Source: an uncultured virus (IMG/VR IMGVR_UViG_3300045599_000077)
Lineage: Duplodnaviria; Heunggongvirae; Uroviricota; Caudoviricetes
Reading direction: 5' to 3' (one strand)
IMG/VR virus record: IMGVR_UViG_3300045599_000077
Length of the DNA stretch: 23,339 nt
A model generated the notes under the pieces. It was not told where the DNA came from and did not search any database. It saw nothing but the letters and a program-made list of their open reading frames with translations. Made by a program: the position numbers and the translations under genes. Shown piece after piece: positions 5,266 to 21,093 of this stretch (positions are counted from its first letter, which is position 1; each line of letters starts with the position of its first letter).

Positions 5266-5478
5266 AATAACACTCCTCCTATTTTCAGATTATTTATCGA
5301 ATATTTATAGGTGTATTTTATATTGAAAAATAAAGGGTTGTCAATGATATGAAATAAAATCATTATTAAGTAACTAGGCTTTAGTTTGAAGTAACATCTC
5401 ATTTCCATTATTATTTTTAACTTGCTTTCACCTGTGTTTTGAGTGATGAATGTTAACAACAAAAACACAGGAGGGCTA

Positions 5479-7223: not shown

Positions 7224-7787
7224 ATGGGAGTAAAAGGGCAGAAACAGAAAAATACGAAGTGGGAAACGATTGTCTATCCGAGACTTTCGGAGATTCAAAA
7301 ATGGTGTGAAGAGGGACTTACAAATGATGTGATTTGCAAAAGGCTTAATATTGCGCAATCTACGTGGTATGAATATCAAAAAGAATATCCGATGCTTTCG
7401 GAGTTAGTTAAAATGGGCAAGTCTGTTATCGATTCGCAGGTGGAAAATTCTTTATTAAAAGCGGCACTCGGCTACGACTATGAAGAAATAAAAACAATTG
7501 TGGAAGAAGATAAAAATGGAAAAAAGCGGACTCGGATTGAGAAAGTAAAAAGGCATCAGCCACCAAACCCTACTGCGATGATATTCTGGCTTAAGAATCG
7601 TGCGCCGGATAACTGGAACGATAGAAGAGAAATTATGATCGATACCAAGCAATCTGAACTGGAACGCAAGCAACTGTTCCTACAAATGATTGAAGAAGAA
7701 GCGCAGGATGAAGTAATCGAAGGCGAGTACAGTATTATTGAAGAATGTGAAACAGAAGAAGAATTCGAGGAACCCGAACAGGAGTAA
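7224..7787 (+). CDS. terS: Terminase small subunit (HTH type)
   Basis: N-terminal HTH (GLTNDVICKRLNIAQSTWYEY), VENSLLKAALGY and PPNPTAMIFWLKNR motifs, acidic tail; lies upstream of terL. Confidence 0.8.
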   Translation: MGVKGQKQKNTKWETIVYPRLSEIQKWCEEGLTNDVICKRLNIAQSTWYEYQKEYPMLSELVKMGKSVIDSQVENSLLKAALGYDYEEIKTIVEEDKNGKKRTRIEKVKRHQPPNPTAMIFWLKNRAPDNWNDRREIMIDTKQSELERKQLFLQMIEEEAQDEVIEGEYSIIEECETEEEFEEPEQE

Positions 7788-7980
7788 GATTGCTCGATTC
7801 TGTAGTTTGTATCGCTTCATTCTGTATATACGGCTGCTATATCGAACTCATCTTGCTACTCTATATCAAATACAATGCTATCCATCCATATCCAATTGTA
7901 TAGAAGCATAAATATTATGTCGTGAGTTATTCGATAGATAAATGCCAGATTCATTGTTAATTCTGCCTAAAAACTGCCCG

Positions 7981-8014
7981 AAGTCACAACATAATGACCG
8001 TTATGTATCGAGTT
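7981..8014. other. dif/IRS-like tyrosine recombinase core site: AAGTCACAACATAA-TGACCG-TTATGTATCGAGTT
   Basis: Inverted arms with ACATAA/TTATGT inner ends around a 6-bp asymmetric spacer; a third arm copy TTATGTCGTGAGTT at 7915-7928; immediately upstream of the recombinase promoter. Confidence 0.7.
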
Positions 8015-8018
8015 CTCG

Positions 8019-8047
8019 TTGACTTCATACCGCACCAATCGTACCAT
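8019..8047 (+). promoter_or_regulatory. Putative sigma-A promoter of tyrosine recombinase
   Basis: TTGACT-17 bp-TACCAT. Confidence 0.55.
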
Positions 8048-8071
8048 GTGACTGAAAGGATGGTGCGGAAT

Positions 8072-8920
8072 ATGCGGTATATCAATGAGTTTACAATCTA
8101 TTTGCAGAGTAAGGATAAGAGTGAAAATACAATTTCCTGCTATATTCGGGATACGAAGGCGTTTATCGAATGGTATAGCAGCAAAACCGAGCATGGAATT
8201 GAAAAAGTTATCGAGTTTGATGCGGTACAGTATAAGAAGCATCTACAAACCGAGTATAAATCCTTTGTCACGATTAACCGGAAGATAGCCAGCGTAAACT
8301 CATTCTTGAAATGGCTGAGGGAAAAAGGCCATATTAATGAAGAAATAGCTATCAAGACGGTAAAGGACAAGGATGTAAAACAATACAAAGGGCTAGAGAA
8401 CAAGGAATTATGGAAGATACGAAGTGAAATCCACCGCTTAGGCAACCGAATGCATATCTGTATCATTGAATTATTGCTTGGCACAGGCATCCGGGTAAGC
8501 GAACTCACGCATATTCAGCTAACCGATATTCAAATGACTCCACGAAAAGGACTTCTCACCGTAAAAGGGAAAGGAAACTCGAAACGAACCCTTCCATTAA
8601 ATAAGGACACAAGGAAAGCTATTGCTCAATATTTAGAAGTCAGGCCGGAGAGTGATTCGGATTACTTACTAATTGGACAGCGAGGAGCTTTACAGCGGAA
8701 TGCGATTAACTTGATATTGAAGCATTATGGCGACCGGGTAAAGGTAAAAGTCACACCGCATCAGCTACGGCACTCGCTTGGATATAACCTGGTCAAACAA
8801 GGTGTACCGTTGACAACCATCCAGCAAATACTCGGACATGACGATATTTCGACAACGAATATATACACCTTAACAACACAAAAAGATATGGATGAAGCTT
8901 TAGAGAGCGTGGAGTGGTAG
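8072..8920 (+). CDS. Tyrosine recombinase (XerC/D / TnpI-like resolvase, 282 aa)
   Basis: SAM-like N-terminus (KSENTISCYIRD), catalytic R (GIRVSEL), K (KGKG), HQLRH, LGH and Y (TTNIYT). AAAGGA-TGGTG RBS region supports ATG 8072 rather than 7994. Confidence 0.92.
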   Translation: MRYINEFTIYLQSKDKSENTISCYIRDTKAFIEWYSSKTEHGIEKVIEFDAVQYKKHLQTEYKSFVTINRKIASVNSFLKWLREKGHINEEIAIKTVKDKDVKQYKGLENKELWKIRSEIHRLGNRMHICIIELLLGTGIRVSELTHIQLTDIQMTPRKGLLTVKGKGNSKRTLPLNKDTRKAIAQYLEVRPESDSDYLLIGQRGALQRNAINLILKHYGDRVKVKVTPHQLRHSLGYNLVKQGVPLTTIQQILGHDDISTTNIYTLTTQKDMDEALESVEW

Positions 8921-8937
8921 AGATAACCGCTCTTTTT
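8911..8937 (+). terminator. Terminator after tyrosine recombinase
   Basis: GGAGTGGT/ACCGCTCT stem plus T-run. Confidence 0.55.
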
Positions 8938-9038
8938 ATGTTCTACGAAGGGGAGGGGTACTTCTATTTAATGGAATCAGGCCGCCAGCAAAGGCTTCAG
9001 AAAAATTTTCGATGAATTTTTTGGTGAATAATGTTGTG

Positions 9039-9665
9039 TTAGCTGACTTCAACGATAAGAATTTTAAATTCACCACTTGAAGAATCAGAAACTTTAGAAT
9101 AAGGGTTCCAATTTAAGTTATATGAATTAGTTAGGACGATTTCGCTTTCTCTGCCACGTTTAGTTCCAGCAGAAGCTAACTCGCCCCACGCTAATGCACC
9201 ACACAAATTTCTACCTTCATGAATTTTAAAAGCAGCATCTACACTATCGATTTTGGTAGAGACATTCCAATACAAGTTATCATTTGTAAGCATAATTGCG
9301 TATCCAATAGAATGTGTTTCCTTAGAGATAACTTGCTCTAACCTTGAGATATCTTTAATAAAATCATATCTTCCGCAATCCTGAGCACTATGATTTTTAA
9401 GATTAAATGCTTCATCATTGATAATAAAAGATGACTTTTTAGTTTTGTATTTTAGCTCAATTGGAATGTTAATGCCATTGTAATTGACCCAAATGTCTAG
9501 ATAGACATTATTCGATACATAGGGATAGTTATATTCTAACCTGATTTGTGCGTTAGGGTACTGGCTTTGGATTTCCCATGCAAAAGCTAATTGAAAATCT
9601 GCTTCAGAGTGAAAAAGAGGTCTATTGTTTTTTAGTTTAGAGATAACATTTTTAATATCTATCAT
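9039..9665 (-). CDS. Putative PD-(D/E)XK restriction-endonuclease-like protein (antisense moron)
   Basis: SEADFQ helix, YLDIWV and IELKYK motif order match a PD-(D/E)XK core; AAAGGA RBS; very AT-rich; opposite strand to flanking genes. Confidence 0.65.
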   Translation of the reverse strand: MIDIKNVISKLKNNRPLFHSEADFQLAFAWEIQSQYPNAQIRLEYNYPYVSNNVYLDIWVNYNGINIPIELKYKTKKSSFIINDEAFNLKNHSAQDCGRYDFIKDISRLEQVISKETHSIGYAIMLTNDNLYWNVSTKIDSVDAAFKIHEGRNLCGALAWGELASAGTKRGRESEIVLTNSYNLNWNPYSKVSDSSSGEFKILIVEVS

Positions 9666-9746
9666 AATCTAGCTTCCTTTATCTTATTTATTCCTTAATT
9701 TTACTATAAGTTTATAAGGTTCTGCTACTCAAAAGGGGGGATGTAA

Positions 9747-11348
9747 TTGAATGTGGAACAAGAATTTGAGCGTCAAAATCATCTTCTTAAACAATATATG
9801 CAAAAATACTTTTCTCCAGATAAAATAAAACAACTTGCTGAAATATTCACCTTTTCTGAACTCCGAAAACTCATCGGTGAAATGGACATTGAATTTTTCG
9901 CTCTCTGTTACTTCCCGAAGTATTTCGACCGCAAGTTCGGCAAGTTTCATCGGGAACTATTTCAGGAACTCAAATATATGCTATCAAATAAAGGGTTAAT
10001 CAATGCTTTTGGATTGCCAAGGGAACATGGCAAAAGCACGATTAACTCTTTTTTATTTCCTCTGTATGCCACTCTCTATGACAAGTCACAGTTTACGCTA
10101 ATTATTTCGGCTACCGAACAAATTGCGCTTCCATTCCTCGATATGATTAAAGACGAGCTAGAGAACAATCAATTACTGATTGAGGACTTTGGCATCCAGA
10201 AAGGGAACCGCTGGAACAATAATGAAATCTGGATAAAGAGCAGCGGTGGATTGGATTCCTGCATTATGATTCGTGGAATTGATGGTTCACTGCGTGGTAT
10301 CCATTATAAACAGCATAGACCAACGCTAGTGTTGCTGGATGATTTGCTTAAAGATGATACTGCAAAATCCGAAACAAAACGTGAGCAAGTGAAAAATACA
10401 TTCACCGATGTTGTCTTGCCAATCGGCACAAGGGATACTAATATTCTCATCTGCGGTACGATATTAAACGAAGAAGACTTAATGGCTGACTTGTTAAAAG
10501 GAAAAATACCAGGAGTTCGCAGTATTAAAAAGTCGGCGGTCATTCGCTTTTCTGAACGAGATGATTTATGGAGTGAATGGGAAGCCTTATATAATAATTT
10601 GCAGGATGGAGACAGGATAAATACAGCCCTGTCTTTTTTTCATGCTCATAAAGAAGAGATGCTGGAAGGAACAGAAATATTGTGGGATGAGTATCTTGAT
10701 TATTATTACCTCATGTGTAAGAAGCAAGCGATGGGGGAGAAGTCATTTTATAAGGAACTGCAAAATGACCCACGCTCTACAGATGAATACATATTCCAGC
10801 ATATTCAGTATTGGGATCGACTGCCGGATTTTGAAGAGATGGAGATCGTCATGTATATTGACCCGGCGATTAAATCTGGAAAGAAAAACGATTATTCAGC
10901 CATTACGATTTTAGGACAGCATCGAAAAACGAAACAGTGCTATGTTATTGATGGAAATGTGTATAAGTTGTTGCCAGATGATTTGTTTAAACAGATTATT
11001 CACAAATTACTAACATATCCGGTTGATAAAATTGGATTTGAAACGATACAGGCGCAGAGTTATATGAAACAGAAATTTGAGGAGGAACTATGGAAGGCAA
11101 AGATTTATGTTCCGGTGGAGAGTGTGAACAGTAAAGGTCAGAAACATGAACGAATTATTAGTCTAGAGCCGGATGTTAAAAAGGGACATATTCTGTTCAA
11201 TAGGGATAATATACGTTATAACAATCAGATAAAAGATTATAACAAAAATTGCAAATATGATGATGCGCCGGATAGTTTATATGGCGCTGTTCAGTTAGTA
11301 CAAGCGGTCAAGAGTTTAAAGTTCTATGAAAGAAAACTGCTTTTTTAG
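9747..11348 (+). CDS. terL: Terminase large subunit
   Basis: Walker A PREHGKST, Walker B LVLLDD, RNase H-like nuclease residues YIDPA and DDAPDS; TTG start after AAGGGGGG RBS. Confidence 0.93.
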   Translation: MNVEQEFERQNHLLKQYMQKYFSPDKIKQLAEIFTFSELRKLIGEMDIEFFALCYFPKYFDRKFGKFHRELFQELKYMLSNKGLINAFGLPREHGKSTINSFLFPLYATLYDKSQFTLIISATEQIALPFLDMIKDELENNQLLIEDFGIQKGNRWNNNEIWIKSSGGLDSCIMIRGIDGSLRGIHYKQHRPTLVLLDDLLKDDTAKSETKREQVKNTFTDVVLPIGTRDTNILICGTILNEEDLMADLLKGKIPGVRSIKKSAVIRFSERDDLWSEWEALYNNLQDGDRINTALSFFHAHKEEMLEGTEILWDEYLDYYYLMCKKQAMGEKSFYKELQNDPRSTDEYIFQHIQYWDRLPDFEEMEIVMYIDPAIKSGKKNDYSAITILGQHRKTKQCYVIDGNVYKLLPDDLFKQIIHKLLTYPVDKIGFETIQAQSYMKQKFEEELWKAKIYVPVESVNSKGQKHERIISLEPDVKKGHILFNRDNIRYNNQIKDYNKNCKYDDAPDSLYGAVQLVQAVKSLKFYERKLLF

Positions 11349-11380
11349 TTAAAAATGATAAAGAAAGGAAGATTAGATAT

Positions 11381-11671
11381 ATGTGTGAAAAAGGGAATTT
11401 AAAAAAAGTACATGTGATTTATGACTTAAAACCACCAAGAGAAAATGATATATATGTTGATTCCTGTATCGCTGAAGAAATTCAATATCTAAATGATAAA
11501 GGCATTAAAACAATGGGCTGTTGCTGTGGACATGGGGAAAAACCTCCTTTATGTTTGATAAATGTTGATAGCATCAAATTATGCGAAAAGTTAGGGTATA
11601 ATGTTCATGAAATATCGCCTGCTCATACAAAAAGCGGAATAGTACAGGTTTATCTAAAAGATTCTAAATAA
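11381..11671 (+). CDS. Small phage protein with VDxCI...LN..GIxT..CCGHG motif (possibly TYW3-like fold)
   Basis: YVDSCIAEEIQYLNDKGIKTMGCCCGHG; GAAAGGAAG RBS. Confidence 0.7.
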   Translation: MCEKGNLKKVHVIYDLKPPRENDIYVDSCIAEEIQYLNDKGIKTMGCCCGHGEKPPLCLINVDSIKLCEKLGYNVHEISPAHTKSGIVQVYLKDSK

Positions 11672-11714
11672 GAGGTAATTCACTACAAAGATTGATAGAT
11701 ATAGTGATTACCTC
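11672..11714. terminator. Hairpin between convergent genes (possible bidirectional terminator)
   Basis: GAGGTAATTCACTA ... TAGTGATTACCTC inverted repeat. Confidence 0.5.
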
Positions 11715-11722
11715 CGGGATTA

Positions 11723-11956
11723 TTACTTTGTATGAAGTTCGTTTAAACACCAATAGCAACCATCATATCCAGGATTATTCTTGATGTAATTTTCTACTTC
11801 CGAATATGTATCCAACATTTTGATATGGGACGTAGTAATTTTATTTATGTCGCAGGAAGTATGTTCATTATCCAAATCATGAATCTCTTTGTGTTTAGGA
11901 TTAGTATTTACAACATATCTTTTACCGTTAAATGGAGATTGATATCTTCTAGCCAT
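11723..11956 (-). CDS. Small His/Cys putative zinc-binding protein (77 aa; Ada metal-binding-like pattern)
   Basis: AAGGAAGGGA RBS then ATG 11956 (MARRYQ...); YVVNTN..EIH....C...GYDGCYWC. Confidence 0.7.
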   Translation of the reverse strand: MARRYQSPFNGKRYVVNTNPKHKEIHDLDNEHTSCDINKITTSHIKMLDTYSEVENYIKNNPGYDGCYWCLNELHTK

Positions 11957-12070
11957 ACAAATCCCTTCCTTTGTTTTTAATTTTCTATATATTATATATT
12001 TAGTGTAAATGGAATTTAATAGAAACACAAGGGTTTTCTTCTGGATTTTAAAATGAAAGGACGTGATTAT

Positions 12071-13354
12071 TTGCAAATTACCGAAAGTCTAATACTTGAA
12101 TGCTTAAATGAATTGAACAAGAGTGCTGCCGCTAAACAGCAATATAAAGACTACTACGAAGGCAACCATAAAGTTTTACACGACTATGCAATGCAGGATA
12201 GCCGTAGCAACCGCAAACTTGTTTTCAACTTCCCACGCAAATTCGTGGATAATGAAACCGGCTATTTGTTAGGGAAGCCTGTGAACTATGTATCTAAAAC
12301 CGATGATAAAGAGATTATTGATAAAATTGACCGCCACATGAGCCACTGGGACAAAGAACATAATCTCAATCTCCGAAAGCAAAGTGAAATTTATGGCGAA
12401 AGCTATGAATTGAATTACATCAACACAGACGGCGAATTTTCCGCTACCATTTTAACTCCACTCAATGCCTACATATTAGAAGATGGAACGGCAGACCATA
12501 ATGTTCTGCTGGCGCTTCATCAATTCACCCGAAAGTTTGATCCCAAAACGTATCTCGATGTTTACACGGAACAGGACATTCTGCATTACGAAGTGACAGA
12601 TAAAACGAAAATCGAATATATCGGAAAACATAATCACATCTTTGGAAGAGTCCCAGTGATTTCTTGCCCTGCCAACGGGGAAAGAAAAAGCGGCTTCCAG
12701 GATGTGATTTCTTTATTTGATGCGTATAATGCGTTGAATTCTGACTTGGTGAATGAAATTGCTGACCATCGCAATGCGTATTTAATCATAGAGAATGCAA
12801 AGCTGGAAGCAGAAGACTTGATGAATATGAAGAAGATGGGGATTATTCAAGTCCCAAGCGGCGGCAAAGTATCATGGCTGACCAAGGAAATTAATGATTC
12901 GTTTGTTAAAAACGAGTTAGATAATTTGGAGAGAAAGATTTACGACTTAATGGATGAGGTGAATTTTAATGAAAACTGGAGCAGTAATACGTCCTCGCTG
13001 GCCTTGCGAAATAAGTTGCTGAACTTGGAAAACCGAGTGAGCATGCGTGAGGCTATTATGGAAAAGGTCATCAAACAGCGACTGAAAAACTTCTTTATCT
13101 ATCTGGAGAAGAAAGAAGGCAAAGTGTATGACTATCGGGATGTTTCGGTGAAGTTCACCCGGAACCTGCCGACTGATTTAGTGGGCATTGCGGATGTGAT
13201 TGTAAAATTGCAGACGGTATGCTCGCAAGAAACATTGCTAACTTTACTGCCGTTTATTGAAAATCCGAAATTGGAGGTGGAAAAGTATCGTGCGGAAAAA
13301 GCGAGGAATCAAACTGATGAGGGAACGGCTCCAACTACCCCTTCTACTATATAG
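12071..13354 (+). CDS. Phage portal protein, SPP1 gp6-like
   Basis: YYEGNH, KLVFNFPRKFVD..TGYLLGKPV, HIFGRVPV, LFDAYN..NSD and FTRNLP...SQETLL motifs; GAAAGGA RBS before TTG 12071. Confidence 0.93.
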   Translation: MQITESLILECLNELNKSAAAKQQYKDYYEGNHKVLHDYAMQDSRSNRKLVFNFPRKFVDNETGYLLGKPVNYVSKTDDKEIIDKIDRHMSHWDKEHNLNLRKQSEIYGESYELNYINTDGEFSATILTPLNAYILEDGTADHNVLLALHQFTRKFDPKTYLDVYTEQDILHYEVTDKTKIEYIGKHNHIFGRVPVISCPANGERKSGFQDVISLFDAYNALNSDLVNEIADHRNAYLIIENAKLEAEDLMNMKKMGIIQVPSGGKVSWLTKEINDSFVKNELDNLERKIYDLMDEVNFNENWSSNTSSLALRNKLLNLENRVSMREAIMEKVIKQRLKNFFIYLEKKEGKVYDYRDVSVKFTRNLPTDLVGIADVIVKLQTVCSQETLLTLLPFIENPKLEVEKYRAEKARNQTDEGTAPTTPSTI

Positions 13355-13411
13355 TCGTTATCACAATATCCTAGCGCATTATTATCGCATTATTTATAGA
13401 ATGCAAATTTG

Positions 13412-13448
13412 AGTCCAATAACAATCACATGTTATTTGGACTTTTTTT
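13412..13448 (+). terminator. Terminator after portal gene
   Basis: AGTCCAATAAC/GTTATTTGGACT stem plus T-run. Confidence 0.6.
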
Positions 13449-13523
13449 ATGCCTTTTATGAGGCGAATCATTCTGCGTTTCCGGTTCTGATGAGTTGGAA
13501 GGGCAAAAAACAAGGAGGCAATA

Positions 13524-14144
13524 ATGATGAATTTAGAAGAAGTTAAACAGTTTATCGAGGAAAGCAAAGAAAACGAAGAAGTGCAAACATATCTAAAGGG
13601 CTTATATCAAATGAGCGTGGCAGATGTGGAGCATTTCTTGAAAACGAACAAAGAAGGAATGAGCTGGCTGGATTCCACTGTAGATAAGCGAACGGCCAAG
13701 TCGCTGGAAACGTGGAAAGCGAATCATCTGGAAGGCTTGATTGATACAGAAATTAAGAAACGTTTTCCAGAAAAAGATGCCAGAGATATCGAGGTAGAAC
13801 GATTGAGAGCGGAAGTTGAAAAGATGAAGCTGGAGAAACAACGAGAAGTGCTAATGAACCAAGCGATGAAAGCAGCCACAGAAAAGAACTTGCCGTTCAC
13901 ACTCATTGAGTACTTTATTGGAGTTGATGAAGCTTCCACATTGCAAAATTTGACGGTACTTGAAGAAGCGTTTCAACAGGCCGTTCAGAAAGCGGTCGAA
14001 CAACGGTTAAAAGGCGAAGGGTATACGCCTCCTCAATCATCCGCAAGTAACACGATTACATGGCAATCCGTTTCATCCATGTCTCCAGATGAAATCAATC
14101 AAAACTGGGACAGCATTAAACAGGCATTAAAACAAAAATTATAA
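13524..14144 (+). CDS. Capsid scaffolding protein (DUF4355-like)
   Basis: Coiled-coil, EKNLP...AVQKAVEQRLKG..TP pattern; position between portal and capsid. Confidence 0.85.
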   Translation: MMNLEEVKQFIEESKENEEVQTYLKGLYQMSVADVEHFLKTNKEGMSWLDSTVDKRTAKSLETWKANHLEGLIDTEIKKRFPEKDARDIEVERLRAEVEKMKLEKQREVLMNQAMKAATEKNLPFTLIEYFIGVDEASTLQNLTVLEEAFQQAVQKAVEQRLKGEGYTPPQSSASNTITWQSVSSMSPDEINQNWDSIKQALKQKL

Positions 14145-14165
14145 TGAAGGGATTAGGTGATACAT

Positions 14166-14996
14166 ATGTCAGTAACAAATTTTATTCCTACGATTTGGAG
14201 CGCACGTTTAAATGAAGGGTTTAAAAAGAACTTGGTGTATGGGAACTGTGTGAATACAGATTATGAAGGCGAAATTGCCGGACAAGGTTCTACGGTGAAA
14301 ATTAATTCGGTTGGAGCTGTCACAATTGGTACATACGATAAAACAACCGGAATCGGGAATCCGCAGGAATTAGATTCTACACAGAAAACATTGACGATTG
14401 ATCAGGCGAAATATTTTAATTTCCAAGTGGATGATGTCGATAAAGCGCAGGCGAATGTGGATTTATTGGAAGCTGGAATTACGGAGGCATCCTATGGATT
14501 AGCGAATGTGGCTGACCAGTATATTGCCGGATTTTATACCGAAGTAAAAGCAACCAATATCATTGGCGATGATACAACTCCGATTGTGCCAACGAAGGAT
14601 AATGCCTATGATTACTTAGTGGATTTGGGTGTCATCTTAGATGAAAATGATGTGCCGGAAACGGATCGATTTGTCGTAGTTCCTGCCTGGTTCTATGGCT
14701 TGTTAGTGAAAGACCCTCGATTCACAAAAGACAGCAATGTCATGCGTACCGGATATGTAGGAGACATTGATGGGATGGCTGTTTATAAATCGAATAACGT
14801 TCCCAATGTGTCAGGGACAAAGTACAAAATTATCGCTGGACATAAATCAGCGATCTCTTTCGCAGGTCAAATTGAGTCCGTAGAAGCATATCGTCCAGAA
14901 AAGCAATTTTCTGATGCGGTGAAAGGATTACAAGTATACGGAGCAAAATGTATCAAACCAGAAGGATTAGCGGTTCTTACTGCCAACAAAGCATAA
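14166..14996 (+). CDS. Major capsid protein (HK97 fold, P22-coat-like family)
   Basis: FIPTIWS, YEGEI..QGSTVKI, LTIDQAKYFNF.VDDVD, VP..DRFVVV and E.YRPEK.FSDAVKGL.VYGAK motifs; ATG 14166. Confidence 0.92.
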   Translation: MSVTNFIPTIWSARLNEGFKKNLVYGNCVNTDYEGEIAGQGSTVKINSVGAVTIGTYDKTTGIGNPQELDSTQKTLTIDQAKYFNFQVDDVDKAQANVDLLEAGITEASYGLANVADQYIAGFYTEVKATNIIGDDTTPIVPTKDNAYDYLVDLGVILDENDVPETDRFVVVPAWFYGLLVKDPRFTKDSNVMRTGYVGDIDGMAVYKSNNVPNVSGTKYKIIAGHKSAISFAGQIESVEAYRPEKQFSDAVKGLQVYGAKCIKPEGLAVLTANKA

Positions 14997-15009
14997 ATAC
15001 ATAACGAAC

Positions 15010-15039
15010 AGGGTGTCTCTGAAAAGGGATGCCCTTTTT
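15010..15039 (+). terminator. Terminator after capsid gene
   Basis: AGGGTGTCTCT/AGGGATGCCCT stem plus T-run. Confidence 0.6.
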
Positions 15040-15061
15040 CATTTTTAAGGAGGCGGAGCTG

Positions 15062-15337
15062 ATGCTAGGGCGTATCGTATCTTCCAATGGAATCATTGAG
15101 ATGAAGCCACCAGAAACAGAGAAAGAAATCATCCTAGGTGAAGTTGTTTACGAATTGAATCTTATTATTACAAATCATTGTAAAGTGTATATCAATGACA
15201 GTCCTCATTTTATTTATCTACCTATTATCTATACGCAGCCATTTTCTATAAAGGGAATTCCCATCTGGAAATTTAAAATTTGCATGGTTGATCGTTCGAT
15301 TTACCCATTTGAATTTAGCTACTATGGATTTTATTAA
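15062..15337 (+). CDS. Small beta-rich protein (possible capsid decoration/accessory)
   Basis: AAGGAGG RBS before ATG 15062; alternating hydrophobic beta-strand pattern; position after capsid gene. Confidence 0.6.
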   Translation: MLGRIVSSNGIIEMKPPETEKEIILGEVVYELNLIITNHCKVYINDSPHFIYLPIIYTQPFSIKGIPIWKFKICMVDRSIYPFEFSYYGFY

Positions 15338-15358
15338 TAAGGAAAGGAAGGGATAGGC

Positions 15359-15523
15359 ATGTGGTTTTTGCATAAAGAAACCGGATTGAAATGGGAAGTT
15401 ACCGATGAAGCGCTGATGAGAAGGTTAATGGAGAATGAAAGTTACGATTTGATAGAATCACCTATTGTATCAGCTACAACGGCAAAGAAAAGTAAATCAA
15501 ATGGAAAGCTGGTGAAGGAATGA
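15359..15523 (+). CDS. Small hypothetical protein (54 aa, not in ORF track)
   Basis: GGAAGGGA RBS; MWFLHKETGLKWEVTDE...KLVKE*; stop overlaps next start (ATGA). Confidence 0.7.
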   Translation: MWFLHKETGLKWEVTDEALMRRLMENESYDLIESPIVSATTAKKSKSNGKLVKE

Positions 15524-15828
15524 CGGAACAGATTGACCTGATGAAGAATTTGTTGCAGATAGAAAGTGCAGATGCCACAAGAGACATGATTTTGCTTCAT
15601 TATATACAGAAAGCACGAAGCAATATCTTAGGCTATTGTAATGTAAACGAATTACCATCGATTTATGATTTTATTGTGGTGGACTATGCGGTATATCTGT
15701 ATCGCAATCGAGATGCGGTAGGCATGACCCGGAAAACAGAAGGAGAGAAAAGCGTCTCGTATGAAGAGATGATTCCGATGTCCATTCGGCTGGCTTTACC
15801 TTTACCGAGAATTAAGGTGGGATATTAG
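15520..15828 (+). CDS. Head-tail connector/adaptor (SPP1 gp15 / HK97 gp6-like)
   Basis: KNLLQI...D.ILL.YI..A...ILGYCN...LP...AVYLY......TEGEKSVSY pattern. Confidence 0.85.
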   Translation: MTEQIDLMKNLLQIESADATRDMILLHYIQKARSNILGYCNVNELPSIYDFIVVDYAVYLYRNRDAVGMTRKTEGEKSVSYEEMIPMSIRLALPLPRIKVGY

Positions 15829-15830
15829 CG

Positions 15831-16103
15831 ATGTTTTATGATACACGCATTCAAATATGGAGTGGACTCGATGAAACGACATTTGTCAAAGAAATCGAAG
15901 GCGATGTACAGCCGTATGTCAAAACCATCGCGTTTGAGGATGGATATGAGCTGGAAGTAACGAAGCGAGTATTTTGTGACCGGGATGAAGCGATTACGAA
16001 GAATGGCTGCCTGATCATTGAAGGTGTCAAATATAAAATTCTAAAAATGAAAGTATGGAGCGATTATGTGGAGATTTTGCTATATGCATGTAAACGGCAA
16101 TAA
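15831..16103 (+). CDS. Putative head closure/stopper protein (SPP1 gp16-like)
   Basis: ~90 aa beta-barrel pattern (GDVQP...KRVFC...IIEGVKYKI); position after adaptor. Confidence 0.65.
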   Translation: MFYDTRIQIWSGLDETTFVKEIEGDVQPYVKTIAFEDGYELEVTKRVFCDRDEAITKNGCLIIEGVKYKILKMKVWSDYVEILLYACKRQ

Positions 16104-16117
16104 GGTGGGGGAGGTGG

Positions 16118-17272
16118 ATGACCATACGTGAGAGTGTAGACGAACAAATGGCGTTCTTTCTATATGAAAAGGGAGAAACGGTTCAGGTAAATGGAGTCGA
16201 ACGGCAGGCGCTTATTATCGATGCAATGGATAAAATCAACTATTACGATGATAAAGTTATCCGCAGCCAGGACAAACTGCAAACCGGAGATTTGATTGAT
16301 TATCAAGAAAGAAAGCATCTCCTTATCAGTCAAGTTGACCAGAATCCCCATTCCTATCGGGGCAAAATGAGAGCCTGTAATGATCGAATTGCTTTCAACT
16401 GGGCAGGGAATGTGAAATGGTTCGATGCCATTATAGAGGGACAGGATTTTTCGATTGATGCTGGAACAAAAATGATGATCCCGATAGGCAGTCTCTATGT
16501 CTATATGCAGGATAACGCCGAGACACGGAATATTCAGCTTGATCAGCGTTTTTATCATACACATCGACCATTTAAAGTAGAAGGTATTGATCGTTCCATG
16601 AATGGAGTCATAAAACTGTATGCTGTACTCGATTCCATTTCAAATTATGATGATGTAGAAAATAATATTGCGGAGCGCTGGAGATACGAAACCGCTCATA
16701 CATATTCATTAACCATTAATAATGGAGAGACAGCCAATGTTTTGCTGTATGATGTTCTTCAGCTAAATTATACCGTTACAGATAACGGCAACCCTGTTTT
16801 AAATCCGGCAATTACATTTACATCGAGCGATCCAAGTATTGTTAGTGTAGATAATAAAGGAAAAATCATGGGCATTCAGCCTGGACAAGCGATTATAACG
16901 GCAAGATTAACATATCAAGACACCATTATGGATACGATTACGATAACAACGGTTGAAACCGATATACATAACTATTCGATAACGATTACAGGAAGCCCGA
17001 CCATTAAGAAAGGGATGAGTGCATCCTATGTAGCAAAATTCTTTGATTCAGGTACAGAGGTTTTTGATAAATCGGGAATATGGAGTGTAAGAAATCAAGA
17101 TAATTCTACGCCTGTAATGGCAAGTATAACAGCAAGTACAGGAAACAGCGTAACAATTAAAGCAGGAACGCAAACGGATTATACGAATAAATACATTGTG
17201 TTAACGTGTACGTTATCCGATGATGCCAATATAAAAGCTGAGCAGTTAATACAAATCAAAAGTCTATTTTAG
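16118..17272 (+). CDS. Virion structural protein with C-terminal Ig-like (Big_2) domains
   Basis: LQLNYTVTD...ITFTSSDPSIVSVDNKGKIMGIQPGQAIITA is Big_2-like, followed by a second Ig-like segment; beta-rich N-terminal half. Confidence 0.8.
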   Translation: MTIRESVDEQMAFFLYEKGETVQVNGVERQALIIDAMDKINYYDDKVIRSQDKLQTGDLIDYQERKHLLISQVDQNPHSYRGKMRACNDRIAFNWAGNVKWFDAIIEGQDFSIDAGTKMMIPIGSLYVYMQDNAETRNIQLDQRFYHTHRPFKVEGIDRSMNGVIKLYAVLDSISNYDDVENNIAERWRYETAHTYSLTINNGETANVLLYDVLQLNYTVTDNGNPVLNPAITFTSSDPSIVSVDNKGKIMGIQPGQAIITARLTYQDTIMDTITITTVETDIHNYSITITGSPTIKKGMSASYVAKFFDSGTEVFDKSGIWSVRNQDNSTPVMASITASTGNSVTIKAGTQTDYTNKYIVLTCTLSDDANIKAEQLIQIKSLF

Positions 17273-17311
17273 AAGGGGCTTGCCGATAGGTGAGTCCTTT
17301 TATTTTTTTTT
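17273..17311 (+). terminator. Terminator closing the structural module
   Basis: AAGGGGCTTGCC-GATA-GGTGAGTCCTTT plus long T-run. Confidence 0.7.
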
Positions 17312-17338
17312 CATTTGAATGGGAAGGGGATACAATTG

Positions 17339-17467
17339 ATGCAGACAAAAAGTGTGGAATATTTGCTGAGTGTACATATTTTACAACAATTACAGGCAAT
17401 GAACTTGATTACAGAAGAAGAGTTTGTTGCTATCGATAAGGAAAATCAAAAGTCATTTCATGGCTGA
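17339..17467 (+). CDS. SHOCT-like microprotein (42 aa) upstream of serine recombinase
   Basis: GGAAGGGG RBS; MQTKSVEYLLSVHILQQLQAMNLITEEEFVAIDKENQKSFHG*, with the SHOCT-type LITEEEF motif. Confidence 0.7.
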   Translation: MQTKSVEYLLSVHILQQLQAMNLITEEEFVAIDKENQKSFHG

Positions 17468-17552
17468 TAACATACATAAATAACTTGAATAACTCTAAAA
17501 CCAATTATACCATGTGTGTGCAATAGGAATATATCAGGAAGGAGTGCTGCGA

Positions 17553-19157
17553 ATGGCTAAAGTGGTTAAAATTATTCCGGTGAAACCGGCAGATGTTGTC
17601 GAAGGTGTACCAAAAAAGATAAAGAAACGAGTATGTGCATATTGCCGGGTAAGCACAGATTCGGAAGAACAGAAAGAAAGCTACGAAAACCAATTAAACC
17701 ACTATACCCGATACATTCAAAGTAATCCAGACTGGGAGTTCGTAGACATCTATGCGGATGAAGGGATTTCGGGAACCAATACGAAAAATCGAACGGAATT
17801 TAAGCGAATGATTCAAGATGCGCGAGAAGGAAAAATCGACCTCATTCTCACTAAATCCATTTCACGCTTTTCCCGGAATACGATGGACTTACTGAAATAT
17901 GTGCGTGAGTTACGGAGTAAGGGGATTGCCGTATTATTCGAAAAAGAAAACATCAACACATTGGATTCTGCCGGAGAAGTATTCCTCACCATATTCAGCT
18001 CGATTGCACAGGATGAAAGCCGGAATATTTCAGAGAATTCCCGATGGGGGATTGTGAAAGGATTTCAGAATGGAAAAGTTTTTTGCAATACGACTCGCTT
18101 TCTTGGCTACGATAAAGACGAAGATGGTGAGCTGATTATTAATGAAGAGGAAGCGAAAATTGTGCGGCGCATTTATCAGGAATACTTAGAAGGGAAAAGC
18201 TATCAGGCAATTGCAAACGGACTCGAAGCTGATGGCATTAAAACCGCAACAGGAAATACGAAATGGTGGGATTCCACCATTACAGGTATCTTGACGAACG
18301 AAAAATACTACGGAGCCTTATTGCAGCAGAAAACGATAACCGTTGATTTTCTCACACACAAACGTGTGAAAAATATAGGGCAAGAACGACAGTTTTTTAT
18401 TGAAGAAAACCACGAACCCATCATTTCAAAAGAGATATTCGATAAGGTACAGAAGGAAAAAGAGCGCAGAGCTTTGCTCAAGGGAAATGTAAAAGGAGAG
18501 AGAAAAAAGTATTCGAGTAAATATGCGTTCAGTGGGAAAGTGTACTGCTCCAAATGCGGCAATACCCATAAGCGGAGAACGTGGAATAGTAACAATACCT
18601 CCAGAAAAGTAGTGTGGCAGTGTAAAACCTATATTAATGAAGGAAAAGATGCCTGCAACGCCAAGGCGGTCGATGAACAAGTATTACAGGATGCTTTTGT
18701 CCGGGTATTCAATCGGATGAAAGCAGATAAGGATGGATTTATTGAAACCCTGCATGACAATATTGAGAAAGTATTAGCGAAACGAGCAGGGGCTACCGCC
18801 ATCCAAGATATTGAAAGTAAAATGGAGCAGCTAAAATCTGACCTTAGAGGATTGGTGCAACTTCAAGTGCGAGGGCAGATTGATGAGGAAGTCTATAATG
18901 AAGAGCAAAGCCGAATGTCACAGGAGCTGGATGAGTTACGGAAACGGCGACTAGAACTGGATAAGGAACAGCATGGGAAAGAGCAATATAAGCAACGAGT
19001 TCAGGAGATTATTCAGACTATCCAGAGTAAGCAGGGCTTGTTGGAAAAATTTGATGATGACATATTCAATGCGCTGGTAGAGAAGATCGAAGTTCTCTCG
19101 CCAGCGCATTTTGTTTTTATATTGAAGAGCGGAATGAAGGTTGAGGAAACATTTTAG
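17553..19157 (+). CDS. Large serine recombinase (integrase of the phage-like element)
   Basis: AYCRVST catalytic Ser, DEGISG, KSISRFSRN, recombinase domain, Zn ribbon CSKCG...WQC...C, coiled coil. GAAGGAG RBS before ATG 17553; promoter TTGAAT-17-TACCAT at 17485-17513. Confidence 0.95.
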   Translation: MAKVVKIIPVKPADVVEGVPKKIKKRVCAYCRVSTDSEEQKESYENQLNHYTRYIQSNPDWEFVDIYADEGISGTNTKNRTEFKRMIQDAREGKIDLILTKSISRFSRNTMDLLKYVRELRSKGIAVLFEKENINTLDSAGEVFLTIFSSIAQDESRNISENSRWGIVKGFQNGKVFCNTTRFLGYDKDEDGELIINEEEAKIVRRIYQEYLEGKSYQAIANGLEADGIKTATGNTKWWDSTITGILTNEKYYGALLQQKTITVDFLTHKRVKNIGQERQFFIEENHEPIISKEIFDKVQKEKERRALLKGNVKGERKKYSSKYAFSGKVYCSKCGNTHKRRTWNSNNTSRKVVWQCKTYINEGKDACNAKAVDEQVLQDAFVRVFNRMKADKDGFIETLHDNIEKVLAKRAGATAIQDIESKMEQLKSDLRGLVQLQVRGQIDEEVYNEEQSRMSQELDELRKRRLELDKEQHGKEQYKQRVQEIIQTIQSKQGLLEKFDDDIFNALVEKIEVLSPAHFVFILKSGMKVEETF

Positions 19158-19293: not shown

Positions 19294-19635
19294 ATGGACT
19301 TTTTTGAAAATGTGGGTAGAAATATTCTTGTTGTATTGAAGCAACAAGGAAGTAGTCAAAGCTCCCTTGCTGAAAAAATTGGCGTATCGAGACAGGTTAT
19401 GCAAAAAATTATAAAAGGAAAAAAAGCAATTAATGCTCTGGAAATTTCAAAAATTGCAGAGGTACTTGGTGTTTCTGTAGAAACGTTAACGCAAGAGACA
19501 ACCAAAACACAGGAAGAAGATCAAGTTGTCATGTTTATGGGAAGTATTAAAAATGAACATGTGAAAGAAAAGTTTGATTTTCTGAATGTAATTATGGAGG
19601 AAATCGTCCATATGGAGGATGACCTAAATGAGTAG
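19294..19635 (+). CDS. XRE-family HTH transcriptional regulator
   Basis: SQSSLAEKIGVSRQVMQKIIKGKK....LEISKIAEVLGVSVETL; AGGAGG RBS. Confidence 0.92.
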   Translation: MDFFENVGRNILVVLKQQGSSQSSLAEKIGVSRQVMQKIIKGKKAINALEISKIAEVLGVSVETLTQETTKTQEEDQVVMFMGSIKNEHVKEKFDFLNVIMEEIVHMEDDLNE

Positions 19636-20497: not shown

Positions 20498-21093
20498 TGA
20501 AGCATTTAGATAAAGTTATTCTGGATGCTGACATTTGCTTTAAACTTGGCAGATATTCAAAAGTTCAAGTACTGCAACAAGTCATTCCCCATATTGCGAA
20601 TGAAGTGTATATTCACGAATACGTGTATGCAGAAGAGATTAAGAAAAGGGAAAATGGAAAAGATCAGTTAGAACAGTTGATTGCCTTGAAACAACTAACC
20701 GTTTTATATGAACAGGATTTGTCGACATACCAAAAGCATATTTATGATGGTATAGTATCTTTATTATGCCAAGTTATGAAAGGAACGCCCCCGTATAAAG
20801 ACAAAAAACATTTGGGAGAAATTTTTTCCCTTGCGATGGCTAAAACTTTGCAAATTCCTATTTTCATGACAGATGAGAGAGATTTGCAGCCTATTATTGA
20901 TTCTAAATTAAACTCAGGAATGTCAGATGATATTAGTGTATTTCGCCTTCGGAGTTTGATTTTTTGGATAAAAGAACATCCTGAATGCGGAATTAGCAGG
21001 AAAGAAGCGAAGTTTATCTGGTGCGGAGCTTATAGTAAAGATGATTTGGATTATTATAAAGCGGAATTTGATAATAAAATTTGGCCACTGTAA
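20494..21093 (+). CDS. PIN-domain-like protein (putative RNase/effector)
   Basis: VILDAD, VYAEE, HLGE..SLAMA and FMTDERD acidic residues in PIN order; start overlaps the peptidase stop. Confidence 0.75.
   Translation: MMKHLDKVILDADICFKLGRYSKVQVLQQVIPHIANEVYIHEYVYAEEIKKRENGKDQLEQLIALKQLTVLYEQDLSTYQKHIYDGIVSLLCQVMKGTPPYKDKKHLGEIFSLAMAKTLQIPIFMTDERDLQPIIDSKLNSGMSDDISVFRLRSLIFWIKEHPECGISRKEAKFIWCGAYSKDDLDYYKAEFDNKIWPL

Follow-up and report, generated by a model that had tools for sequence, protein, structure and literature searches.

The window, a 23,339-nt stretch of DNA from an uncultured virus (IMG/VR IMGVR_UViG_3300045599_000077), covers most of an integrated mobile element of about 30–40 kb, the left arm of which lies outside the sequence (Table 1). 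The gene order of the element is variable cargo, an RdRP-like RNA polymerase, a DUF5659 protein, a helicase-like protein, a ParB-methylase and TerS, followed by a dif-like site with an Xer-like recombinase, accessory slot 1, TerL and accessory slot 2, and then by portal, scaffold, capsid, adaptor, head-completion protein and neck protein X, ending with a large serine recombinase, further variable cargo (here PDC-M69) and attR. The first-pass annotation had placed the element at 7224–19157, which is too small on both sides: it begins left of the window, the polymerase, helicase-like protein and ParB-methylase being on that side, and its right end is near 21140. This is an intact copy of a widespread family of mobile elements of the Bacillota, and no description of the lineage was found in literature searches.

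Table 1. Features of the element, with positions in the window and the matches that identify them.
Feature	Position	Strand	Matches and remarks
RdRP-like (YonO-type) single-subunit RNA polymerase, 3' end	2..295	+	cut by window edge
Small DUF5659 protein	273..584	+	Pfam DUF5659 3.9e-4, phrog_31546 3.6e-18
739-aa helicase-like protein (SF2 / ResIII-DEAD-like)	587..2806	+	
ParB-N / N6-N4 DNA methyltransferase fusion	3677..4897	+	PF01555 2.3e-26, ParB_N 2.3e-7, phrog_498 1.1e-177
Amidoligase-family protein	5443..6228	+	Amidoligase_2 5e-5, phrog_2443 1e-55
Small terminase subunit TerS	7224..7787	+	phrog_309 1.4e-41
Conserved non-coding region: dif-like inverted repeat and promoter-like site	7900..8060		
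Xer-like tyrosine recombinase	8072..8920	+	Phage_integrase 4.7e-34 and SAM-like N-terminal domains
Accessory slot 1: 208-aa ORF	9039..9665	-	
Large terminase subunit TerL	9747..11348	+	phrog_38 2.9e-92, T7-type RNaseH-like nuclease domain
Accessory slot 2: 96-aa ORF (+, 11381-11671) and 117-aa ORF (-, 11723-12076)	11381..12076		
SPP1-type portal	12053..13354	+	PF05133 6.6e-96, phrog_64 3.3e-105
Scaffolding protein	13524..14144	+	DUF4355 1.1e-25, phrog_172 4.9e-30
Major capsid protein	14157..14996	+	phrog_267 6.5e-73, Phage_capsid_2, P22_CoatProtein
Small conserved ORF, 54 aa	15359..15523	+	phrog_20453 2.1e-5
Head-tail adaptor	15520..15828	+	Phage_connect_1 2.3e-12, phrog_132 1.1e-15
Head-completion (stopper-type) protein p90, 90 aa	15831..16103	+	Atlas structure
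Protein X, 384 aa, Ig protein	16118..17272	+	Big_2, phrog_16444
Terminator-like hairpin closing head operon	17272..17301	+	13-bp stem, 5 GC pairs, then T run
Large serine recombinase, taken as integrase	17553..19157	+	Resolvase 6.9e-38, Recombinase 6.1e-28, Zn_ribbon_recom 3.7e-13, phrog_95 5.3e-151
Right-arm cargo: candidate defence system PDC-M69 A/B/C (HTH, M78 peptidase-like, 199-aa protein)	19294..21093	+	
Right junction (attR region) and displaced rlmD 3' end encoding ...THVECTVLLKLREASQ*	21130..21191	+	reading frame 21078-21191

What remains of the polymerase has 59% identity to the C terminus of a 1076-aa ORF at the same position in a metagenome relative (L061), and homologous polymerase ORFs in the relatives match Pfam RdRP PF05183 (5.2e-17; 2.7e-8). 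It is unusual for a known satellite to have its own RNA polymerase or a genome of full size, and both traits would also fit an autonomous virus. The DUF5659 protein, in which the C-terminal ~57 aa are the conserved part, is 61–65 aa long and 68–80% identical in relatives, where it is always between the polymerase and the helicase-like gene. The 739-aa helicase-like protein has no match in Pfam, PHROGs or NCBIfam; the Atlas puts it near ResIII/DEAD clusters, one of them with YonV_C in 10% of its members, which is a lead only. It is found in the same position in relatives L060–L063 (70–71% identity) and in the copy on a metagenome chromosome, G004 (33%). The ParB-methylase is conserved in the relatives with 50–81% identity, and the amidoligase-family protein is 59% identical in G004. 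None of the genes found is recognisable as a replication initiator, a repressor switch or a helper sensor.

TerS is 45–73% identical in the relatives and TerL 73–86%, the closest phage TerLs being those of Mu-like phages (33–35%). Two further genes between them had been overlooked in the first-pass annotation, one for a tyrosine recombinase, which has a dif-like site, and the other a 208-aa ORF on the minus strand. The non-coding region between terS and the recombinase gene is a conserved block, in which the dif-like repeat has its arms at 7980–7994 and 8001–8015, a 6-nt spacer and the core CATAA-N6-TTATG at 7990–8005, with the promoter-like site at 8019–8047. Of the 15 aligned elements, 14 have this core without change and the other (L024) has one mismatch, and the dif-like pattern occurs once in the window against 0.02 occurrences expected. 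The ORF of the tyrosine recombinase runs from 7994 to 8920, with the ATG at 8072 as its likely start, and its best NCBIfam matches are XerA, XerD and XerC (6.9e-54 to 9.2e-48), all under the cut-offs. It has a dN/dS of 0.048, and of the 15 loci that have space for it between terS and terL, 14 carry it there. In the relatives there are between 127 and 1860 nt from this recombinase to TerL, and differing genes occupy this interval, slot 1; here it holds the 208-aa ORF, for which there is no match in Pfam, PHROGs, NCBIfam or PADLOC. The distance from TerL to portal at slot 2 is similarly variable (-1 to 2223 nt), and its two ORFs match phrog_12958 and phrog_28292, both families without an assigned function.

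In the head module, Pfam, PHROGs and the Atlas place TerS, TerL, portal, scaffold, capsid, adaptor, stopper and Ig protein where the first-pass annotation had them. There is no prohead protease. The major capsid protein shares 53% identity with its counterparts in the tailed phages AP45 and D6E, and the 54-aa ORF is present in most relatives. p90, without a Pfam or PHROG match, is conserved in all relatives, and its Atlas structure has a TM of 0.80 to a cluster with PF05521 Phage_HCP in 83% of its members. That the head genes are intact, as had been proposed, agrees with their lengths, which equal those in relatives, no gene of the window copy being broken. Ribosome-binding sites had been noted for all of them; a Shine-Dalgarno-like motif is present ahead of TerS, TerL, scaffold, capsid, adaptor, p90, X and the serine recombinase ATG, but none is obvious before the portal ATG. 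All of the core genes tested are under purifying selection, with dN/dS of 0.03–0.27 for TerL, portal, scaffold, capsid (0.05–0.06), adaptor, p90, X and both recombinases, in a comparison where synonymous sites are near saturation.

Structure models of protein X (pLDDT 81.7 for the whole protein, 79.7 for the N-terminal part) have two neck-type beta-barrels (residues ~2–89 and ~88–176) followed by two Ig-like domains. In VIA-align, residues 2–89 match 8hdr_A (Z 11.1, rmsd 3.2, 81 aa), with further neck matches to 7kjk (Z 10.8), 9b42 (Z 9.8) and the stopper 8gtf_M (Z 8.4), while residues 85–176 match neck chain 9m6x_S (Z 7.4); the Foldseek matches are lambda and T1 neck chains. A protein search gave 221 homologues of X. 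Its N-terminal part has 26% identity to the "head-tail joining protein" of a Bacillus siphophage, which is encoded upstream of the major tail protein, and a distant homologue precedes the tail genes in complete Bacillus siphophages. As modelled, X is a neck protein with an N-terminal stopper-type fold, and it is predicted to bind p90. The complex prediction of p90 with the N-terminal part of X, made with self-built alignments, gave a score of 0.72, whereas the best of 3 controls had 0.02. Of 157 solved complexes 116 come up to this mark, as do 2 of the 215 mismatched pairs; the score may stem from resemblance to neck complexes that are already solved. At least 94% of the contacts are shared among the three runs, and the partner pLDDT is at least 85.

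The terminator-like hairpin leads directly to the serine recombinase, as first described, with an ORF that is open from a GTG at 17514 and a ribosome-binding site before the ATG at 17553. Among the family loci with at least 400 nt of sequence after X, which span two classes, the serine recombinase is the next gene after X in 27 out of 27 (gap 139–460 nt), and in none does a tail module intervene between the two. In 3 of these loci the recombinase is only 27–28% identical, which would mean that the integrase has been swapped and the layout kept.

The rlmD target that had been suggested is borne out by the displaced rlmD 3' end at 21141–21191, after the three-gene candidate defence system. The first pointer to this junction was a weak tblastn hit, and the reading frame here matches the RlmD C-termini (VDMFPHT.HVE[SC]V...) of genomes G042, G029 and G004. 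When G029 is compared with G042, which has no X, the sequences part within the HVE codons. In Paenibacillus the left junction is within the conserved C-terminal motif of RlmD, and the rlmD reading frame is open across it as read in G029; the corresponding junction of the window copy is outside the sequence. On these alignments the element is inserted in the rlmD 3' end.

Hosts of the family are Paenibacillus, Desulfotruncus, Desulfotomaculum, Desulfosporosinus, Anaerovorax, Clostridium and Eubacteriales. X is present in 5 of 31 sampled Paenibacillus genomes, in 4 of which it is 24.7–28.8 kb downstream of rlmD on the same strand, and tandem arrays of 2–3 element copies occur at one att site. 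This patchy distribution, the arrays and the spacing from rlmD indicate that the element is mobile. No circular junction was found among the public contigs matching the window.

There is no tail or lysis family match in Pfam or PHROGs anywhere in the window, in agreement with what had been noted from its genes. Since the left arm of this copy is outside the sequence, and the metagenome contigs searched contain no exact match to the window, the absence of tail genes from it rests on the relatives. Tail and lysis genes were sought within bounded elements, and no such family is present in the 36.6-kb tandem unit E2 of a Paenibacillus chromosome, in the 34.4-kb G029 insertion as bounded against G042, or in the P. 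agricola and G004 copies, nor is there one in the 10 kb left of two close metagenome relatives. The relatives hold several large ORFs without any family match, and a novel tail protein may be among these.

A full set of genes for filling and sealing a head, without tail or lysis genes, would suggest that the element probably spreads with borrowed phage tails. The best reading, and a reasonably probable one, is that this is a full-size (about 31–41 kb) capsid-forming satellite lineage, which makes its own heads and takes tails and lysis from other phages. It is best read as unrelated to the cf-PICIs, which carry a protease, HNH and int-alpA-rep, unlike this element; the contrast with cf-PICIs drawn in the first-pass annotation agrees with the cf-PICI papers. 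After induction, such a satellite would be excised by its serine recombinase, its late operon would be transcribed by its own polymerase, and its TerS and TerL would load its DNA, by headful, into capsids that it builds itself on its scaffold. The adaptor, p90 and X would close the head in that order, X being the most distal head-side ring with its Ig domains outside, and a co-resident or infecting tailed phage would supply tails and lysis. The Xer-like recombinase and the dif-like site next to terS may resolve multimers, or may circularise terminally redundant DNA on entry, P1 Cre/lox being an analogue. In G004 a complete siphovirus prophage, with HK97-type head genes, neck, tube, tape measure, holin, endolysin and two serine recombinases, is present between rlmD and the element, and is a possible tail donor in this single case.

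The head closed by adaptor, p90 and X could instead be a complete virion or gene-transfer particle, tail-less or stub-tailed and produced autonomously, which attaches by the Ig domains of X and is released by host autolysis, such as mother-cell lysis. An RNA polymerase of its own, a full phage size, two outward Ig domains on a neck fold, host genera that we take to be mostly spore-forming and the absence of an identified helper are all in keeping with this. It is, however, rather unlikely, given that there is no ejection, cell-wall-degrading, tube, nozzle, fibre or lysis gene, that the capsid gene is trailed by only three small neck genes, and that the distant homologues of the N-terminal part of X function in complete tailed phages, encoded ahead of normal tail modules. 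To our knowledge, no portal-bearing bacterial virion infects without a tail.

The G004 array, in which tail and lysis genes are directly upstream at the same rlmD, and the position of the window's left arm outside the sequence might indicate that the element is half of a two-part phage, with its tail and lysis genes in the same replicon or in a fixed partner element elsewhere in the genome. The G004 neighbour, however, has its own terminase, portal, protease and capsid and is therefore a complete phage; there is no neighbour of this kind inside the array in the Paenibacillus tandem units or in the G029 and P. agricola copies, and in close relatives the 10 kb that precede the polymerase contain restriction-modification and host-like genes. 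A divided phage is thus quite unlikely.

Seven relatives (L007, L012, L019, L021, L026, L030, L031) have frameshifts or deletions in head genes or recombinase, and in the G029 copy the polymerase is gone and IS fragments are present, as would be expected of a prophage lineage that lost tails and lysis once and decays as an immobile remnant, kept only for its defence cargo. This is improbable in view of the selection on every head gene, the same X-recombinase boundary at all 27 loci across two classes, the patchy distribution with multi-copy arrays at one att site, and the unbroken genes of the window copy. Satellites are known to interfere with their helpers and the element is rich in defence cargo, but a role of the capsid genes as decoys or in other interference against infecting phages, with no infectious particle, is very improbable when a complete terminase, portal, neck set, integrase and att site, beyond what interference needs, are kept together.

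If the element is a capsid-forming satellite, its cargo arms and the two slots in the packaging operon would hold defence and accessory genes that repay the host for keeping it. PDC-M69 A/B/C was identified by PADLOC (5.2e-39, 1.8e-87, 3.2e-66), with Pfam matches to HTH_3 and Peptidase_M78. In relative L001 PADLOC finds Lamassu, and other cargo in the relatives includes type I restriction-modification, toxin-antitoxin, metal resistance, a Dcm-Z1-AIPR island and VgrG-like toxins. A contig from an RNA library overlaps each of slot 1 (8750–9677), slot 2 (10981–11984) and the PDC-M69 region (19246–21416).

The genes of the window, as drawn from the ORF listing and from scans against the Pfam and PHROGs families, are given in the table. 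All of the features listed in the first-pass annotation, from TerS to the Ig protein, the terminator and the integrase, are correctly identified, although it had left out the tyrosine recombinase gene and the 208-aa ORF, which lie between terS and terL. Most of the head genes have a ribosome-binding motif upstream, and the start of the large serine recombinase is most likely the ATG at 17553. Across the whole window there is no match to a tail or lysis family in Pfam or PHROGs, as had been claimed from the sequence alone. Nor is there a tRNA gene in the window, or a match of the 7224-19157 region to phage records by megablast.

Features of the window, with positions in window coordinates
Feature	Position	Strand	Basis or remark
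3' end of cut gene	2-295	+	first 97 codons match C-terminal end of a relative's polymerase, 59%
DUF5659 protein	273-584	+	ORF listing and family scans
739-aa protein, helicase-like	587-2806	+	
ParB-N/DNA methyltransferase	3677-4897	+	family scans
Amidoligase	5443-6228	+	family scans
TerS	7224-7787	+	family scans
Tyrosine recombinase	7994-8920	+	
208-aa ORF	9039-9665	minus	
TerL	9747-11348	+	family scans
Two small ORFs	11381-12076		
SPP1-type portal	12053-13354	+	
Scaffold (DUF4355)	13524-14144	+	
Capsid	14157-14996	+	
Adaptor	15520-15828	+	
p90, 90-aa protein	15831-16103	+	
X, 384-aa Ig protein	16118-17272	+	
Terminator-like hairpin	17272-17301	+	
Large serine recombinase	17514-19157	+	Resolvase, Recombinase and zinc-ribbon domains
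HTH, M78-peptidase-like and 199-aa genes	19294-21093	+	
Second large serine recombinase	21205-22731	minus	

A protein search with X, the Ig protein that closes the structural operon, returned 221 homologues of about 383 aa that are 55-78% identical, the named ones being from Paenibacillus, Desulfotomaculum, Desulfosporosinus, Clostridium and Thermoanaerobacterales. Relatives were compared by tblastn with the window proteins in an IMG/VR locus (L001) and 29 reference-genome loci. In every locus that is long enough the gene order is TerS, tyrosine recombinase, TerL, portal, scaffold, capsid, adaptor, p90, X and serine recombinase. The large serine recombinase is the next gene after X in all 27 loci with at least 400 nt beyond X, at a distance of 139-460 nt; the three other loci stop 5 nt or less from X and are therefore outside this count. 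In three loci (Anaerovorax, Anaerovoracaceae and Eubacteriales) the recombinase in this position is merely 27-28% identical. The capsid gene has been exchanged in some members, being Phage_cap_E in L001 and a P22-type coat in the metagenome-derived chromosome G004. As the serine recombinase directly follows X in 27 of 27 loci, it is a conserved design that the structural operon stops abruptly after the neck genes, and none of these loci has a tail module between the two genes, which would have implied a one-off deletion in the window.

Four relatives could be bounded: the Paenibacillus genomes G001 and G029, contig C12 of P. agricola, and G004. In the Paenibacillus chromosome G001, rlmD is followed by three tandem copies with X-to-X spacings of 36.6 and 31.7 kb. 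The middle unit (E2, 36.6 kb), in which each ORF was compared with Pfam and PHROGs, has in its left part a VgrG-like/EndoU toxin, HTH and RES proteins and several unknown proteins, then a 1131-aa RdRP-like protein, ParB, a 684-aa protein and a ParB-methylase, and to the right the packaging and head genes, X and the recombinase. Compared with G042, which has no X, the G029 genome carries an insertion of 34.4 kb. Inside this insertion there are IS fragments, a Dcm-HATPase-Z1-DUF4420-AIPR island and a ParB-methylase, then the head module and recombinase, and then KptA, a VgrG-like toxin and hsdM fragments. The order on the P. agricola contig is rlmD, PemK, type I restriction-modification, RdRP-like polymerase, DUF5659, a 600-aa protein, ParB-methylase, head module and recombinase. 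In G004 it is metal-resistance genes, type I restriction-modification, polymerase, DUF5659, a 737-aa protein that is 33% identical to the 739-aa protein of the window, methylase, amidoligases, head module and recombinase. No tail or lysis family was found in any of the four, so that, judged on these relatives, the genes missing from the window would not be elsewhere in the att-bounded element.

The left arm of the element lies outside the window. In two close metagenome relatives, with a helicase-like protein 70-71% identical, the polymerase gene is immediately left of the counterparts of the window's first genes, and further left are restriction-modification or host-like genes. An exact 41-base word from the left end of the window has no match in metagenome_contigs; one public run has a contig of 74,240 nt that terminates at window position 8010.

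Between rlmD and the head-only element in G004 (chromosome 2848000-2898000) there is a complete siphovirus prophage of about 46 kb, which has two serine recombinases at its right end and whose ParB-methylase, one amidoligase and gamma-glutamyl cyclotransferase are 50-55% identical to those of the element. In this adjoining prophage the PHROGs library detects Neck1, tail terminator, major tail protein, tape measure, Dit, holin and endolysin, so that the negative result for tail and lysis genes is not due to insensitivity of the search. Streptococcus phage Javan262 (22.7 kb), with a capsid that is 51.5% identical, was considered as a head-only relative and set aside, as it carries tape-measure, fibre and lysin genes. 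The 170-kb Bacillus siphophage KoopaTroopa has a gene annotated as a tyrosine integrase (L003 11899-12888) within its tail module, immediately ahead of the gene for the tape measure.

The first-pass annotation had ended the element at the recombinase (19157), and this boundary has to be moved. There is no rlmD remnant directly 3' of the recombinase (19158-19293); it is at 21141-21191, within a frame (21078-21191) that comes right after the last of the three genes following the recombinase and terminates in ...THVECTVLLKLREASQ and a stop codon. RlmD proteins have the C-terminal end VDMFPHT.HVE[SC]V..., and comparison with this displaced rlmD end places the right junction of the window at about 21130-21150. 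The occupied rlmD of G029 departs from the G042 sequence within the HVE codons, where the element provides a new C-terminus, and the rlmD of G004 has the same ending, followed by the array. The junction is therefore inside the C-terminal motif of rlmD, the sequences diverge within a few bases, and the att site has no long direct repeat. Both the displaced 3' end and the comparison of G029 with G042 confirm the proposal of rlmD as the target. Going by its domains and this junction, the large serine recombinase would be the enzyme through which the element integrates. No similarity indicating a conserved att half-site 3' of the recombinase was seen across the relatives. Since rlmD in G042 is immediately followed by a remnant of hsdM with an internal deletion (L055, about 3000-3200), G042 is not a clean empty site and, as there is also a TerL fragment beyond the insertion in G029, the right end of that insertion is only approximate. 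Together these remnants show that the rlmD site accumulates decayed copies.

The second recombinase, on the minus strand, is outside the element. The sequence beyond the rlmD remnant (21205-23339) holds this 508-aa protein, for which the best NCBIfam match is XisF-like and below the cut-off, and an uncharacterised 116-aa ORF, and both are probably part of a different mobile element. At the right edge, 126 bases (23214-23339) have a contig depth of 122-196x in public runs, against 21-27x elsewhere, which indicates a repeat.

The genes after the recombinase differ among the relatives. In the window, the three genes at 19294-21093 match all three PADLOC PDC-M69 models (A, B and C) in adjacent positions (5.2e-39, 1.8e-87 and 3.2e-66) over nearly the full model lengths, and are a candidate defence system. 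A palindrome at about 19206-19228, overlapping a promoter-like site, is just 5' of them. In L001 there is instead a Lamassu system (12847-15665; LmuA 1.2e-143, LmuB 8e-244) directly 3' of the serine recombinase. In Paenibacillus G001 and G029 this right arm has polymorphic toxins of about 1000-1090 aa with small downstream ORFs, their VgrG-like (Phage_GPD) N-terminus being conserved and their C-termini variable, with EndoU in one. In P. agricola there is a GGDEF-EAL gene, which is not host flank, as it has 83-84% paralogues on C28 and on C16, the contig of the second copy of the element, where the 83% paralogue is about 3.5 kb downstream of X.

There are no family matches to p90, but its Atlas model aligns with the Phage_HCP (head completion) cluster with a TM of 0.80. 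A model of the N-terminal part of X (pLDDT 79.7, pTM 0.76) was aligned to about 48,000 PDB representatives, and residues 2-89 match the neck proteins of many tailed phages, the best being 8hdr_A (Z 11.1, rmsd 3.2, 81 aligned residues), then 7kjk (Z 10.8), 9b42 (Z 9.8), 2pp6 (Z 9.3), the stopper 8gtf_M (Z 8.4), PBSX XkdH (Z 8.1) and the GTA chain 6tba (Z 7.7). Residues 85-176 form a second barrel, for which the matches are to other neck chains with Z about 7. Foldseek adds the lambda and T1 neck chains, and two Ig-like domains are C-terminal to the barrels. With whole X the Foldseek list was filled by Ig-domain proteins and gave nothing on the N-terminal part, and profile searches with this part and with p90 against PDB sequences gave none below E 0.06. 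Pfam has PF27197 and PF27289 precomputed on homologues of X. Bacillus siphophages of 160-170 kb have a distant homologue, annotated as a head-tail joining protein and encoded three genes ahead of the major tail protein. Complex prediction of p90 with the N-terminal part of X scored 0.72, against 0.02 for the best of 3 controls; this mark is reached by 116 of 157 solved complexes and by 2 of 215 mismatched pairs. The contacts agree between runs by at least 94%, and partner pLDDT is at least 85. The prediction used custom alignments, and its favourable outcome may derive in part from neck complexes that are already solved. The models support a predicted binding of p90 to X, and X is read as the most distal ring on the head side, which could provide the surface for tail docking.

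The tyrosine recombinase is Xer-like, with XerA, XerD and XerC as the best NCBIfam matches, below the cut-offs for XerA, XerC, XerD and XerS, and is between terS and terL in 14 of the 15 loci with room for it. The non-coding stretch 5' of it is conserved between elements whose proteins are just 55-70% identical. In this stretch, directly upstream of the recombinase (together window 7900-8920), there is a dif-like inverted repeat with a 6-nt spacer (core CATAA-N6-TTATG, 7990-8005), followed by a promoter-like site at 8019-8047. Of 15 aligned elements, 14 have the core without a mismatch, and all 15 have it if one mismatch is allowed; it occurs once in the window where 0.02 would be expected. 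Sites of the dif type have this layout, two inverted arms with a spacer of 6-8 bp beside the recombinase, and as in Xer/dif modules the Xer-like gene is directly beside the putative site. Unlike single-recombinase Xer/dif modules, this candidate module is within the capsid-packaging operon of a tail-less element. In phage P1, Cre/lox circularises DNA packaged by the headful, and lox is beside the packaging start region; the dif-like site is likewise next to that region of the element. By analogy, its position next to terS suggests that it may serve to resolve multimers, or to circularise DNA after headful packaging. There are two accessory slots in the same operon (8921-9746 and 11349-12052). 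The gap between the tyrosine recombinase and TerL varies from 127 to 1860 nt and that between TerL and the portal from -1 to 2223 nt, with contents such as a TIR-like match and a GTPase in G004 and nitroreductase/HxlR in G029.

Capsid-forming PICIs (cf-PICIs), of which the prototype EcCIEDL933 is 15.4 kb (10.1101/2022.09.08.507074; PMC10085698), are integrated elements with TerS, TerL, portal, capsid and head-tail connectors and with no tail or holin genes, as is the element described here. Induced by a helper phage, cf-PICIs are transferred on its tails, and the element too would be expected to need only tails (and lysis) from a helper. The differences are several. At about 31-41 kb the element is larger than the genomes of cf-PICIs, which go into small capsids. 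It has a scaffold and no prohead protease, where cf-PICIs have a head maturation protease, and no HNH nuclease, which is part of the cf-PICI packaging module; neither a prohead protease nor an HNH family is matched in the window or in unit E2. The int-alpA-primase/rep module of the left end of cf-PICIs is also missing, as read from the left arms of the relatives, which carry cargo, the polymerase and the helicase-like gene, and have no match to AlpA or primase-rep families. Unlike cf-PICIs, the element has a large serine recombinase following the head genes and targeting rlmD, its own RdRP-like RNA polymerase, and an Xer/dif-like module inside the packaging operon. Its head genes are of other phage ancestry, with TerL nearest to Mu-like phages (33-35%) and the capsid at 53% to AP45 and D6E. 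The contrast with cf-PICIs drawn in the first-pass annotation agrees with these papers; the two kinds of element differ in protease, HNH, int-alpA-rep, gene ancestry and size. From its gene content, then, the element would work like a cf-PICI, and is not a member of that group, lacking four of its defining features (protease, HNH, int-alpA-rep and small genome).

Other known systems are more distant. SPbeta-type Bacillus phages carry YonO as RNA polymerase and SprA as serine recombinase, and are about 134 kb with full tail and lysis modules. The element shares with them an RdRP-like single-subunit polymerase gene upstream of the late genes (Pfam RdRP), a large serine recombinase, and leads of the YopX and YonV_C type, and differs from them in having no tail and lysis modules. 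Among the top matches listed for X, TerL and capsid against phages there is no SPbeta record. The polymerase with the YopX and YonV-type leads would point to kinship with these phages. The terminator, tube, tape measure, distal tail and lysis cassette of a complete tailed prophage are absent from the window and from the bounded relatives. Gene transfer agents are domesticated clusters of head and tail genes that are inherited vertically and package random host DNA. The element is unlike these, in that it has no tail genes, a patchy distribution (5 of 31 genomes), tandem arrays, and its own integrase and att site. Pseudomonas islands (PMC12772148) were rejected as kin, as they have no capsid genes. 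No description of this family was found in the openly accessible literature on capsid-forming satellites, YonO, rumA serine recombinases, Paenibacillus and SPbeta.

The observation of a head-only gene set is confirmed, with its boundaries corrected, and the head-only reading withstands both of the refutations put forward in the first-pass annotation. That it is a satellite which borrows tails is, on the genes, somewhat probable. A decaying lineage is one of three main rivals to this. In seven relatives a core gene is broken by a frameshift or deletion, as is expected for a population of mobile elements. TerL, portal, scaffold, capsid, adaptor, p90, X and both recombinases have pairwise dN/dS values of 0.03-0.27 in all comparisons for which dS was estimable, with synonymous sites near saturation. 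The other rivals are that the element makes an autonomous tail-less particle, and that it is part of a two-part phage. The distribution is that of a mobile element: X is present in 5 of 31 sampled Paenibacillus genomes, all 31 of which have rlmD, and in 4 of the 5 it is 24.7-28.8 kb downstream of rlmD on the same strand. Tandem arrays have two or three copies, and unit sizes are 31.7, 36.6 and 34.4 kb, with about 41 kb in G004.

More tentatively, and with rather less confidence than for the satellite reading itself, these elements may form an undescribed class of full-size (about 30-40 kb) capsid-forming satellites. They would use the RdRP-like polymerase for their own late genes, seal their own heads to a tail-docking neck protein, circularise or resolve their DNA by the Xer/dif module in the operon, and line up in tandem with helper prophages at rlmD. 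They would have spread from one class of spore-forming Bacillota to another via the tails of unrelated phages, with defence systems carried in four cargo positions. The capsid-forming satellites studied so far are small and mainly from Proteobacteria. If the proposal is true, their known range is widened, theft of the tail only has evolved independently, and this strategy is not restricted to small genomes. It would also explain mislabelled 'prophages' in Paenibacillus, Clostridia and Desulfotomaculia, which appear complete to virus-finding tools and would make no virion alone; the IMG/VR record behind L001 is an example. The elements carry restriction-modification, Lamassu, PDC-M69, toxins and metal resistance and, as vehicles of defence genes, may shift these between distant hosts. 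As there are intact copies in cultivable Paenibacillus strains, this can be tested directly.

DNA of the window is present in 13 public runs from 10 studies. Among the public contigs aligned to the window, none shows a join that would indicate a circular form. RNA-library contigs cover both accessory slots and the PDC-M69 genes although, being contigs, they say little about expression; in the RNA-library run there are almost no contigs over about 13345-16679, from the scaffold gene to the first half of X, which is an absence of cover only. In two runs there are two contig alleles over 8020-8530, differing at 48 positions and with the depth about doubled, which indicates that a second, related element shares the tyrosine recombinase region in those communities.
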